Origin: a bacterium BMS3Bbin14
Lineage (GTDB): Bacteria; Desulfobacterota; Desulfobulbia; Desulfobulbales; Desulfobulbaceae
Direction of reading: 5' to 3'
Assembly: GCA_002897615.1 (NCBI GenBank)
Contig: BDTX01000009.1
Span: forward strand, 16,364-40,363
Length of the DNA stretch: 24,000 bases
Shown: positions 9,369-16,536 of the stretch, piece by piece
How the letters are laid out: the number at the start of each line of letters is the position of its first letter
Position numbering within the stretch: position 1 is the stretch's first letter
Translations under genes and position numbers: made by a program
The notes under the pieces: model-generated
The model's database searches: none
Told to the model about the DNA's origin: nothing
What the model saw: the letters and a program-made list of their open reading frames with translations, nothing else

Positions 9369-9445
9369 GCGCTCGTAGCTCAGCTGGATAGAGCATCGGA
9401 CTTCGAATCCGAGGGCCGGGGGTTCGAATCCCTCCGGGCGCACCA
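9369..9445 (+). tRNA. tRNA-Arg (anticodon TCG)
   Basis: Manual cloverleaf: acceptor GCGCTCG / CGGGCGC (one G-T pair), D arm GCTC-AGCTGGATA-GAGC, anticodon arm TCGGA-CTTCGAA-TCCGA (anticodon TCG), variable loop GGGCC, T arm GGGGG-TTCGAAT-CCCTC, discriminator A, and an encoded CCA. Confidence 0.95.
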
Positions 9446-11549: not shown

Positions 11550-11883
11550 GGACGGGAAAAGGACAATAAATTTCGTAGGAACCATGCCGGATACGCATGA
11601 GCTGGCGGGCCTGTGCAAGGCCCTTGGCCATCCTGCGCGAATAAAAATCCTCAAACACCTCCTTGACGAAGACCGTTGCATTTGCGGCCGGATCGTGGAG
11701 GTCCTCCCCCTGGCTCAATCCACCGTGAGCCAGCATCTCAAGATTCTCAAGGAATCGGGACTGATCCTCGGCGAGGTGGAAGGCCCCCGAACCTGTTACT
11801 GCGTTGACAAAAACAGGCTGGCACTCATCGGCGCAGCCGTAGCTGCCCTGCTCCAGCCCGAAAACGACCGGAGAAAATCATGA
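11548..11883 (+). CDS. arsR: ArsR/SmtB-family metalloregulatory transcriptional repressor
   Basis: Winged-HTH core [15 protein letters not shown]...[31 protein letters not shown] CxC sits at the position of the ArsR ELCVCDL metalloid site, with a second CxC (TCYCV) near the C-terminus. The start is uncertain: GTG 11485 (track), ATG 11548, or ATG 11584 (AGGA upstream, best fit to the candidate promoter). The stop overlaps the upstream hgcA ATG (ATGA). Confidence 0.85.
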
Positions 11884-13076
11884 CCGACCTCATCTCCCTG
11901 GAAGCCATCAAACCGGAACCCCTGGGGCAAACATCGTGCGGAGCTGACCTGGAAACCACGCCGCCGGTTTGCGCGGATGACGGCCCCTGTTGAGGCCCAA
12001 AGACCGAGCCCCGGTCCGGGGCTCATGAACGGCCGGGTTACACCGTCAACCACTTTGTGGACGGTTTTGTCGAGACGCCGGCCGGAGCCGTGCCGCGGGT
12101 CAAAACAACCATGACCGGCCGCGATCGTTGCGGCACCGTGAAGGCGCGGACCGGCATCGCCCGCACCAACTACAAGGTTATCCCCGGGCTGTACTGCGTG
12201 GGCACGCCCGGCCCCGAATCACCGGTAATCGTCACTGCCAACTACAAGCTCAGTTTTGATGCCCTGCGCAAGGAACTGGCCGGGATTGACGCTTGGATTC
12301 TGGTCGTCGACACGCGCGGCATCAATGTCTGGTGCGCCGCCGGCAAAGGGACCTTTTCCACGGAAGAGGTCGCGTTCCAGGTCAAGGCCACGCACCTTGC
12401 GGAGGTGGTTTCCCACCGCGAACTCATTCTGCCCCAGTTGGCGGCCACCGGAGTCGCGGCCTATGAGCTGAAGAAGAAATGCGGCTTCAGGGGGGTATTC
12501 GGTCCCATCCAGGCCGCACACATCCCCCGGTTCCTGCGCAACGGCAAACAGGCGGACGAAACCATGCGCGCGGTGACCTTCACGCTGCGTGAACGGCTGG
12601 CTCTCGTTCCGGTCGAGATCTGGCTGCTGTGGAAACTTCTGCTGATCGTCCTGCTGGTAATCTTCGTCCTTTCCGGTATCGACCCGGACGTCTATTCACT
12701 TGCCGCGACCTGGACCCGGGGTTCGGCGGCGGCAGTGGCAACGCTGCTGGCCATCCTGGCCGGGGCCATGGCGACCCCGATCCTGCTACCCTGGATACCG
12801 GGCCGGCAGTTCTGGCTCAAAGGCATGCAGGTCGGCGCCCTGACGGGCATTGCCGCCGTTCTGTTGTCGAGCGGCCGAACCAACATCATCGGCGACCTTG
12901 GCCTCTGGGTCTGGACCGTTGTCATTACCTCGTACCTGGCCATGAACTTCACCGGCTCAACACCCTATACATCACTCTCCGGGGTTGAAAAAGAGATGCG
13001 GCGGGGGCTGCCCCTGCAGATCGGGGGTGCGGCCCTGGCCCTGGTGCTGTGGGTCGCCGCGCCATTTATAGGTTAG
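11880..13076 (+). CDS. hgcA: Mercury-methylation corrinoid protein HgcA. Proposed extended form with in-frame TGA 11991-11993 read as selenocysteine (conservative alternative: GTG 12057..13076)
   Basis: The diagnostic cap-helix motif [13 protein letters not shown] (N(V/I)WCA(A/G)GK) is followed by a C-terminal domain of multiple hydrophobic helices. hgcB lies immediately downstream. Evidence for the extension: ATG 11880 has GGAG 6 nt upstream and is in the same frame as 12057. No in-frame start codon lies between the TGA and 12057. GTG 12057 lacks an SD. A SECIS-like hairpin lies at 12006-12024. Confidence in HgcA identity is ~0.9. Confidence in the Sec-containing extension is ~0.5. Confidence 0.85.
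12006..12024 (+). promoter_or_regulatory. SECIS-like hairpin 12 nt downstream of in-frame TGA
   Basis: GAGCCCC-GGUCC-GGGGCUC is a 7-bp GC-rich stem (8 bp if G13:C17 pairs). The loop G-G-U lies at +23 to +25 counted from the U of UGA (11991). GGCC (11994-11997) can pair with GGCC (12031-12034) to form a lower stem. Confidence 0.5.
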
Positions 13077-13088
13077 GAGACCATAACG

Positions 13089-13382
13089 ATGAAAAACTTC
13101 AGATACATGGACGGCGCGGCTATCCTCAGGCTCAATCGCGAAACATGCGTGGGCTGCGGGATGTGCGTTACGGTCTGTCCGCACCGCATTTTCGGGCTGC
13201 GGGACAAAAAGGCCGAGATCCTTGATTACAATGCCTGCATGGAGTGCGGGGCCTGCGCCAGGAACTGCCCGGTTGCGGCCATTTATGTCAATCCCGACGA
13301 CGGCTGCGGCTGCGCGGCCTATATCATCAACAGCTGGATCGCCAAGGTAAGAGGGTCTTCCGTCCCGGTCTGCGGCTGCTGA
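13089..13382 (+). CDS. hgcB: Mercury-methylation 2[4Fe-4S] ferredoxin HgcB
   Basis: A 97-aa ORF. AGGAG overlaps the hgcA stop. Two CX2CX2CX3CP motifs (CVGCGMCVTVCP and CMECGACARNCP) include the HgcB-typical CMECGAC. The tail is Cys-rich (DDGCGCAAY ... PVCGC*). Confidence 0.9.
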   Translation: MKNFRYMDGAAILRLNRETCVGCGMCVTVCPHRIFGLRDKKAEILDYNACMECGACARNCPVAAIYVNPDDGCGCAAYIINSWIAKVRGSSVPVCGC

Positions 13383-15411: not shown

Positions 15412-15684
15412 TCAGGTCCCTCTCTTCTGCGCCTGTTCGATCAGTTCCGCCAGGGAAAGAATCTTCGGTTTGACGGGTTTGCCGAAGGCATCCCGCCATT
15501 CATCGGGGGAGAGTTCCCGGCGGAGAAATTCTGCGACCGGAAAGTAATGGAACCAGCAGTCAAGGGTCTTGAAGCAGGGCAGACCGAAGTTTTCCGTCCG
15601 GCAGTAGGTAAAGTGGATCTGGTGGCCAAGCCGGGGACATCTGATCTGGAAGTGATCATCCGGCGGCGTGCTGATCGGTTTCAT
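15412..15684 (-). CDS. Small (90 aa) four-cysteine protein, hypothetical (possible zinc-binding)
   Basis: GGAGGGAGG lies ~7 nt upstream of ATG 15684, so this start is shorter than the track ORF. The product is MKPISTPPDDHFQIRCPRLGHQIHFTYCRTENFGLPCFKTLDCWFHYF... with Cys at positions 15, 27, 36 and 41. I do not recognise a family. Confidence 0.55.
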   Translation of the reverse strand: MKPISTPPDDHFQIRCPRLGHQIHFTYCRTENFGLPCFKTLDCWFHYFPVAEFLRRELSPDEWRDAFGKPVKPKILSLAELIEQAQKRGT

Positions 15685-16113
15685 ATACAACCTCCCTCCG
15701 GCCATTGTTCATCAGGCAAAATCCGACACCGATGGCCTTTCCCGGTCCGGCTCGGGATCTCAGCGCCGGCCGGGTAATCTACAGCCAAGAGTGACAATCT
15801 ATGTCAAAGATGCCACTCTGTGGCCTTTTTTTGTCACTTTCCGGTCCCGCCGCCCGGCCGGGACCTCGACGGCAAAAAAATTCCAATTATTCCGGCCAAT
15901 TCGTATTGAATTACCGCTCAGCCCTAACCAGCGGGATTACCGTTGTTATCGTCACCCGCCATCCTTGACGATAAAGGTTATCAAAAACATGACAACTCTT
16001 TGAAAAGGTTAACCTTCCTTGAATACGGAATAGTAATTGCAGCGTTGCCGGTAACGGCCTCTCATTGCCACCTCAACCATGAAATCCGCTCAACAACGAA
16101 TCGGAGGACAATC

Positions 16114-16536
16114 ATGGATGCAATTGACAAACTGGGACTACTGGCAAATCTGCAAGGCGAGTCCTGCGAACTCAACCACGGCCCCGACCCCCGCCGGGAA
16201 AAACATCCTGCCGTTGATTACATTATTCAGCCCTTTGGCTACAATGTAAACGAGATAGAGGAGGTCAGCGTGCGGGAAATGCTGGTGCCGGTCTGCGCGG
16301 AGTGCGCGGAGGCCCTGCGGGGTAACGAGTGGACCCTGTTCTACTGCTTTGAATGTTGCAGCAGCCATTGGGTCTACCGGGAATTCGCCAGGAACCGCTA
16401 CCGTCATCACATCCTCTGGCTGAAAGGCTGCCCGGAATGCGCCTCTGAATTTGCCGGGCTGTACTTCAGCGACCTCGAGTCCATTGTTGAAGTACCCCAT
16501 TTCCTGACCCGGCTGACGATTGCAGAGGTCGCCTGA
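16114..16536 (+). CDS. Cys-rich (CxxC / CxxCC / CxxC) hypothetical protein, 140 aa, zinc-ribbon-like
   Basis: GGAGG lies 6 nt upstream of ATG 16114, which is in frame with the track ORF 15943..16536. The product has PVCAECAEAL, YCFECCSSHW and GCPECASEF. I do not recognise a family. Confidence 0.55.
   Translation: MDAIDKLGLLANLQGESCELNHGPDPRREKHPAVDYIIQPFGYNVNEIEEVSVREMLVPVCAECAEALRGNEWTLFYCFECCSSHWVYREFARNRYRHHILWLKGCPECASEFAGLYFSDLESIVEVPHFLTRLTIAEVA

Follow-up and report, generated by a model that had tools for sequence, protein, structure and literature searches.

A probable selenocysteine codon and a SECIS-like hairpin at the 5' end of hgcA in a Desulfobulbaceae bacterium

HgcA makes methylmercury, a major environmental neurotoxin. 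According to Haft and Gwadz, the majority of HgcA proteins are selenoproteins and share an invariant PCUGP motif, which lies in an N-terminal extension that had been overlooked (bioRxiv 10.1101/2022.07.06.499078; journal version, J Bacteriol 2023, 205:e00259-22, as cited in PMC11588087). In 20 of 20 short HgcA genes that they examined, one UGA allowed extension of the protein to 363-400 amino acids, PCUGP was perfectly conserved, and the machinery for selenocysteine (Sec) insertion was encoded in all 20 species (bioRxiv 10.1101/2022.07.06.499078). According to the authors, the HgcA selenoprotein was added to the NCBI annotation pipeline; structures resembling a Sec insertion sequence (SECIS) element were sought by eye, a prediction server failed, and no consensus for hgcA was given (bioRxiv 10.1101/2022.07.06.499078). 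The HgcA family NF040863 is listed with the motif CU in a 2026 review (PMC13188914). Here, we describe the hgcA gene in a 24-kb stretch of DNA (the window) from contig BDTX01000009.1 of Desulfobulbaceae bacterium BMS3Bbin14; coordinates are window positions. Comparison with related loci indicates that the UGA at 11991-11993 (+ strand) of this gene is very probably a Sec codon that is followed by a SECIS-like hairpin.

HgcA is already a published selenoprotein, and the window gene is another member of that family, i.e., a re-discovery; the supposition in an earlier, sequence-only reading of this DNA that HgcA had not been described as a selenoprotein does not hold, as the work of Haft and Gwadz appeared in 2022-2023 (bioRxiv 10.1101/2022.07.06.499078). 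The window gene shares with the published proteins the single UGA, the N-terminal extension, the pentapeptide P-C-U-G-P and the truncation after the UGA in databases. Its predicted product of 398 amino acids, with G-P-C-U-G-P-K around the Sec residue, lies inside the published 363-400-residue range, and the published ND132 extension, ...DDAPCUGPRPDPRAGVFEKPGY, aligns directly with it. Cys-type relatives have CC and an additional packing of Cys residues, as Haft and Gwadz noted. There is no difference of substance. What we add is a hairpin that is conserved in position, its GGUC loop, the restriction of synonymous codons in its stem, and its absence from Cys-type genes. This is modest documentation and not a new concept.

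Bacterial SECIS elements are stem-loops located directly 3' of the UGA; their apical loop contains G and is about 16-37 nucleotides away from this codon. In the window, a SECIS-like hairpin, GAGCCCC-GGUCC-GGGGCUC, is present at 12006-12024 (+), where the sequence-only reading had placed it. It begins 12 nucleotides after the TGA and encodes E-P-R-S-G-A and the first base of the next His codon. Its loop GGUCC occupies positions 23-27, with the U of UGA as position 1 and G-G-U at 23-25, which falls in the bacterial SECIS range. For comparison, the sequence of the Escherichia coli fdhF element was confirmed by matches of ≥99% identity in 5,413 E. coli genomes and then folded. In both genes, the hairpin lies in coding sequence directly 3' of the UGA (UGA140 in fdhF). 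The apical GGUC is at positions 22-25 in fdhF and 23-26 in the window, a shift of one nucleotide, so the geometry close to that of fdhF, which had been pointed out in the sequence-only reading, was borne out. The window stem is a perfect 7-bp G+C-rich helix without a bulge, and a lower stem is not evident, whereas the fdhF upper stem has a bulged U (U17) that has no counterpart in the window. The host also differs, being Desulfobulbales-like and not an enterobacterium. The window hairpin appears to resemble the fdhF element in its expected working, a likeness that does not extend to a demonstrated identity of structural type.

The rare vicinal Cys-Sec pair and a link to mercury or organometallic compounds are shared with the selenoproteins SaoL, SaoB and SaoC (SAO, for Selenocysteine-Assisted Organometallic) and with MerT-family CU selenoproteins, whose non-Sec homologues are packed with extra Cys residues (bioRxiv 10.1101/2022.07.06.499078). 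Folds and loci of these proteins are unrelated to HgcA, and no SAO genes were found within the 24-kb window. Mammalian thioredoxin reductase has a C-terminal GCUG, i.e., a vicinal Cys-Sec pair on a flexible terminal arm. In contrast to that of HgcA, this motif is at the C-terminus; it forms a redox-active selenenylsulfide that is coupled to a flavin/dithiol centre, and it depends on a eukaryotic SECIS element in the 3'-untranslated region. It has no homology to HgcA and offers an analogy only.

One scan of species-representative genomes yielded 80 hgcA loci (of about 577). In 77 of these, the site was located by a motif scan, and together with the window 78 sequences were compared, which are phylogenetically non-independent. 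The codon aligned with 11991-11993 is TGA in 56 sequences, including the window (TGA-type), TGC in 18 and TGT in 4 (Cys-type), which answers the question, raised in the sequence-only reading, of whether Cys or TGA aligns at codon 38. Neither TAA nor TAG, nor Trp or any other codon, occurs there among the 78 sequences. In every one of them, the aligned codon lies 81 codons before a TANYKLSF motif. The preceding codon, TGT at 11988-11990 (+), encodes Cys37 of the predicted Cys-Sec pair (motif G-P-C-U-G-P), and this Cys is invariant (78/78). Cys-type homologues have PCCGP where the window has PC-TGA-GP, and the TGA aligns with the second Cys of this invariant motif.

A protein search with the read-through sequence returned two classes of relatives. 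The first comprises annotated short proteins of 321-351 amino acids that start just past the position of the TGA, and do so inconsistently (VHEIPGY..., MPGY..., MDGFVET..., MPRV...). The second comprises Cys-type homologues of 401-414 amino acids that align with the full query. The latter read DDAPCCGPKPGPPSSPYERPGY at the site of the TGA-spanning peptide of the window, and the stretch around PCCGP in the long homologues, DDDAPCCGPKPGPPSSPYERPGY, aligns with the same peptide. Conservation spans the TGA, with DDxPC upstream, and GP...PGY..F and ERPGY..HFVDGF.ETP.G.VPRV downstream; a similar pattern (ERPGY...F.....TPAG.VP.V) had been taken for part of the conserved HgcA N-terminal region in the sequence-only reading, which agrees with this alignment. 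Carriers of the TGA-type gene include isolates, i.e., Desulfoprunum benzoelyticum DSM 28570, Desulfopila aestuarii DSM 18488, Desulfovibrio caledoniensis and Desulfobulbus sp. Tol-SR, as well as metagenome-assembled genomes (MAGs). Alternation of Sec and Cys at one codon, as read here from aligned sequences, is a classical signature of Sec, and it agrees with the proposal that the UGA encodes the second member of a vicinal Cys-Sec pair on an N-terminal extension of HgcA.

An extra CC (or C..C) pair is present 10-25 residues from the N-terminus in almost all Cys-type HgcA proteins, and most Sec-type tails are without it. The window tail has two single Cys residues, C20 and C31. These patterns suggest that one Sec may stand in for several Cys ligands.

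The full-length hgcA gene, as defined by translation and by NF040863, occupies 11880-13076 (+) and consists of 398 codons, including that for Sec38, plus a stop codon. Its ATG (11880-11882) overlaps the stop codon TGA (11881-11883) of an upstream arsR gene by 4 nucleotides (tcATGAcc), and a GGAG Shine-Dalgarno-like sequence is read directly at 11870-11873 (+), 6 nucleotides before the ATG. An identical GGAGAAAATC-ATG is found in the closest relatives of the window, loci L001 and L081. The GTG at 12057-12059 (+), which ORF finders (programs that list open reading frames) pick as the start, is preceded by caaccacttt and thus has no purine-rich Shine-Dalgarno sequence. Positions 11880 and 12057 share a reading frame at a distance of 177 nucleotides, and the sole intervening stop is TGA 11991-11993, as translation confirmed. 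No ATG, GTG, TTG or CTG occurs among the 21 codons between this TGA and 12057 (GGC CCA AAG ACC GAG CCC CGG TCC GGG GCT CAT GAA CGG CCG GGT TAC ACC GTC AAC CAC TTT). The overlap, the GGAG, the shared frame, the sole TGA, the lack of start codons and the lack of a Shine-Dalgarno sequence before GTG 12057 had been pointed out in the sequence-only reading and are present as it described them. It had also noted G/C-rich third codon positions on both sides of the TGA. Third-position G+C is 0.70 before and 0.71 after the TGA versus 0.79 in the rest of hgcA, which fits coding on both sides; this is weak evidence because first positions also have values of 0.65-0.67.

The N-terminal extension aligns with the 401-414-residue Cys-type homologues from the first Met on (window start versus MKELLINKNKTDP). 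The alignment reaches back to the first residues, which speaks for a start at ATG 11880. In all TGA-type loci, the frame is open upstream of the site, with a start codon 12-71 codons upstream. Upstream of DDxPC, the peptide sequence is poorly conserved. Compared with L001, the upstream 37 codons of the window have only 8 differences (3, 2 and 3 at codon positions 1, 2 and 3), and the rest of hgcA has 10, 10 and 55, a distribution that indicates purifying selection on the latter. An arsR-like gene lies directly upstream of hgcA on the same strand in 24 of the 78 loci (16 TGA-type, including the window, and 8 Cys-type), and the ATGA overlap suggests translational coupling of the two genes. In L081, a 97%-identical contig from another sample, the TGA is kept and the gene caller split the gene into a 37-residue ORF and a 328-residue HgcA. 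By these sequence comparisons, the true start of hgcA is ATG 11880, and GTG 12057, which would encode an internal Val59 in the first beta-strand of the folded domain, is a gene-caller artefact.

To compare the RNA, positions +9 to +39 of each sequence were folded separately; the 72-nucleotide segments around the site align without gaps. A hairpin is present at the same position (+15 to +33 from the U; 12-15 nucleotides after the TGA) in 56 of 56 TGA-type sequences, and no position-conserved hairpin was found by this folding in the 22 Cys-type sequences. The mean minimum free energy (MFE) is -10.2 kcal/mol in the former versus -5.7 kcal/mol in the latter (56 vs 22 sequences, Mann-Whitney p = 4.8e-7). 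The loop sequence is GGUCN (GGTCN in DNA) in 42 of 56 TGA-type sequences. As to whether the hairpin covaries, one stem pair does. In an alternative register, columns 27/36 hold C-G in 43 sequences and A-U in 11, and are unpaired in 1, with a covariation score of 0.159 versus 0.043 in shuffles (0 of 500 shuffles reach 0.159). In the A-U sequences, CCAC-GGUCCA-GUGG replaces CCCC-GGUCC-GGGG and the peptide changes from EPRSGV to PPRSSG, yet pairing is kept.

Codon usage in the 56 TGA-type genes is also restricted within the stem. The stem Pro codon is CCC in 45 and CCA in 11, and never CCG or CCT; for Gly in the stem, 43 genes use GGG. Outside the stem, all four synonyms occur both for Pro at +2 (22, 20, 7 and 7) and for Gly at +1, where GGC is preferred (35/56). 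This restriction of synonymous codons reflects selection on the RNA and not on the protein. The peptide after the Sec site is PRSG in UGA-type HgcA and PPSS, PASS or PESS in Cys-type HgcA; as a corollary, PRSG would be dictated by the SECIS RNA and not by protein function. The hairpin consensus CCCC-GGUCC-GGGG, with the alternative CCAC...GUGG pairing, is a possible practical marker of UGA-type hgcA. In the closest relatives of the window, the 3' arm is GGGACTC in place of GGGGCTC (hairpin at 3127-3145 of L001 and about 2917-2935 of L081). The stem of L001 and L081 has a C-A mismatch, and its energy is -9.1 versus -16.3 kcal/mol in the window; judging from this mismatch, the hairpin tolerates weakening within a lineage.

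Assignment of the UGA to Sec is supported by the Sec/Cys alternation, by conservation across the UGA, and by a UGA-specific hairpin that is under selection at the RNA level. Several observations weigh against it. In the window alone, the fold of 11985-12050 has z = -1.05, with 33 of 200 shuffles folding as well, and in a longer context the MFE structure favours another pairing. This single-sequence fold is no better than chance; the significance of the hairpin comes only from comparison with related loci. RNAalifold, run on the gapless alignment of 56 sequences, gave no consensus pairs, and a pair count in the fixed register of the sequence-only reading (68% paired cells) was only marginally above controls. 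Such a fixed-register consensus fails because the stem register shifts by one between sub-clades, and the C and G runs allow slippage. The kinship of the sequences means that p-values and shuffle counts overstate the support, and the A-U covariation may represent perhaps two or three events only. An Rfam search (gathering thresholds; E <= 10) found no SECIS family, only chance sub-threshold matches. No selA, selB, selD, Sel domains or tRNA-Sec was found within the 24-kb window, and we found no experimental report of selenium in HgcA in the searchable literature. Finally, with respect to function, expression of ND132 HgcAB in E. coli gave a 37-kDa HgcA, and lysates methylated Hg (PMC11588087). 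From its size, this protein would be the annotated short form; if so, methyl transfer can proceed without the Cys-Sec pair.

This last result, together with the annotation by ORF finders and databases and with the poor conservation of the peptide upstream of DDxPC, would also be accommodated if the TGA were a genuine stop. It would then end a 37-codon upstream ORF, an arsR-coupled leader peptide, and hgcA would be translated separately from GTG 12057 or GTG 12090, with the short ND132 protein seemingly active in E. coli. We consider this very unlikely. The ERPGY and HFV residues are conserved between the TGA and any start. Re-initiation cannot yield these residues because the stretch from the TGA to the ERPGY..HFVDGF block has no start codon in frame. 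GTG 12057 lacks a Shine-Dalgarno sequence, and in a short protein the modelled first beta-strand would begin at residue 1. The supposed stop is also TGA in every case and alternates only with Cys codons, and RNA-level selection on the downstream hairpin is confined to TGA-type genes.

The same alternation bears on the very improbable case that the UGA is read through without the Sec pathway, by a near-cognate Trp or Cys tRNA or a suppressor tRNA, with the hairpin slowing the ribosome or blocking access of the release factor. Hairpins 3' of stop codons can stimulate read-through in other systems, and no Sec machinery was found within the 24-kb window. However, the site alternates strictly with Cys codons and never has Trp or other residues, the SelB-binding fdhF element has the same GGUC loop at a matching distance from its UGA, and Haft and Gwadz reported Sec machinery in all species examined with UGA-type hgcA. 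A sequencing or assembly error, or a pseudogene, might be suspected given that the window is probably a metagenome assembly and its closest relatives are MAG contigs. An error is excluded because the TGA is kept across related loci: it is found in 55 others, including isolate genomes and the independent 97%-identical contig. A pseudogene is at odds with the purifying selection on the rest of hgcA seen against L001 (10, 10 and 55 differences), and this explanation as a whole is extremely unlikely.

Translation of hgcA starts at ATG 11880 and may be coupled to that of arsR. If the UGA does encode Sec, decoding would follow the E. coli fdhF pattern: the hairpin at 12006-12024 would be bound by SelB-GTP with its Sec-tRNA(Sec), and Sec would be delivered to the ribosome at UGA 11991, where release factor 2 competes. 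This would yield an HgcA of 398 residues, of which the first ~57 form a flexible tail with Cys37-Sec38 (PCUGP), and this pair would capture or hand off Hg(II), alongside the Cys residues of HgcB. We infer Sec insertion and SelB binding from established bacterial Sec decoding; the function proposed for the pair is a weaker inference.

The structure of the tail was approached with an AlphaFold model of a Cys-type homologue, P0053, which was made with a 61-sequence alignment and stands in for the window protein. Residues 1-67 of P0053, including PCCGP at 48-52, have pLDDT (predicted local distance difference test) values below 50. The first confident strand, VADFIET (72-78), corresponds to VDGFVET of the window, which begins exactly at GTG 12057, and the alternative start used for another homologue, P0001 (MPRVKT), would cut into the second strand. 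The model thus places Cys37-Sec38 on a tether that is flexible and rich in Pro and Gly, some 20 residues ahead of the corrinoid-binding domain. Sec beside Cys on the N-terminus of HgcA would be a very strong Hg(II) ligand. The pair would most plausibly be a high-affinity site for capture or hand-off of a soft metal, Hg(II), complementing the Cys residues of HgcB. Circumstantial evidence for such a role is that Cys-type proteins have C in place of U and, in most cases, one more CC pair close to the N-terminus, and that further selenoproteins related to mercury or organometals also carry the CU dipeptide (bioRxiv 10.1101/2022.07.06.499078). The pair would presumably improve the enzyme and not be indispensable to methyl transfer. 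A more specific proposal, that Cys-Sec on its disordered tether serves as the physiological acceptor of Hg(II) and feeds the Co-CH3 site, is tentative and, in our estimate, rather doubtful. If true, biochemical and structural work with the annotated short HgcA missed part of the mechanism.

Sec in HgcA connects mercury methylation with the supply of selenium. Truncated HgcA entries of 328-351 amino acids persist in public protein collections and MAG annotations, and most of the close homologues in such collections belong to the short class (321-351 amino acids). These affect hgcA surveys, the design of primers and hidden Markov models, and expression constructs, and such models and surveys omit the Sec-containing tail. 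For the window, the hgcA annotation should be 11880-13076, a 398-residue selenoprotein with Sec at codon 38. The value of the present analysis is confirmatory for a known selenoprotein family.

The identity of the gene is clear from the NF040863 (HgcA_corrinoid) score of the read-through protein, 438 bits versus 275 for the equivalog cut-off. Residues 71-396 match the profile, which has 325 positions, so the N-terminal extension lies outside it. Within 11880-13076 (+), the gene encodes the N-terminal tail (codons 1-57) together with a corrinoid-binding and a transmembrane domain. The cap-helix motif N(V/I)WCA(A/G)GK with the cobalt-ligating Cys is present as INVWCAAGK, and N149, W151, C152, A153, A154, G155 and K156 are invariant in the alignment of HgcA homologues. 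The long C-terminal helices expected of the HgcA transmembrane domain are predicted in the model of P0053. Upstream, the arsR-family metalloregulator (ArsR/SmtB) gene at 11584-11883 (+) scores 68 bits with NCBIfam NF033788 (HTH_metalloreg; cut-off 55), and a gene for 99 amino acids was called at its position in L081.

The hgcB gene starts 12 nucleotides 3' of hgcA, at 13089-13382 (+), and scores 107.6 bits with NF040864 (HgcB_ferredoxin; cut-off 99). It encodes the Cys form of this ferredoxin, residue 73 being TGC, and no Sec was found at this residue in loci L001-L080 or in the window. The window HgcB has ...NPDDGCGCA... and ends with C-G-C in place of the canonical C-C. Among loci L001-L080, this combination of DDGCGC and a C-(G/N/S)-C terminus is common in TGA-type loci with Desulfobulbaceae- or Desulfocapsaceae-type record names, and all Cys-type loci in which hgcB was found, as well as the remaining TGA-type loci, have ...PGVGCA... 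and a CC terminus. The spaced Cys pair may alter Hg binding by the HgcB tail.

The remaining genes of the window are housekeeping genes, including those for glycogen phosphorylase, HrpB helicase, RF3, an exonuclease, flavodoxin, an SprT-like protein, an MFS transporter, a nitroreductase and others. The only tRNA gene in the window is tRNA-Arg(TCG) at 9369-9445. L081 is collinear with the window only from 9456 on; leftward, a phage-integrase gene replaces the tRNA/exonuclease region of the window. The 3' end of tRNA-Arg looks like an integration site adjoining the block of flavodoxin, SprT-like, arsR and hgcAB genes. Two ORFs have no Pfam match. One, at 15943-16536 (+), encodes a Cys-rich, zinc-ribbon-like protein of 197 amino acids (CAECAE...CFECC...CPEC). 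The other, at 15412-15705 (-), encodes 97 amino acids (CPRLGH...C), and a gene for 92 amino acids was called at about this place in L081.

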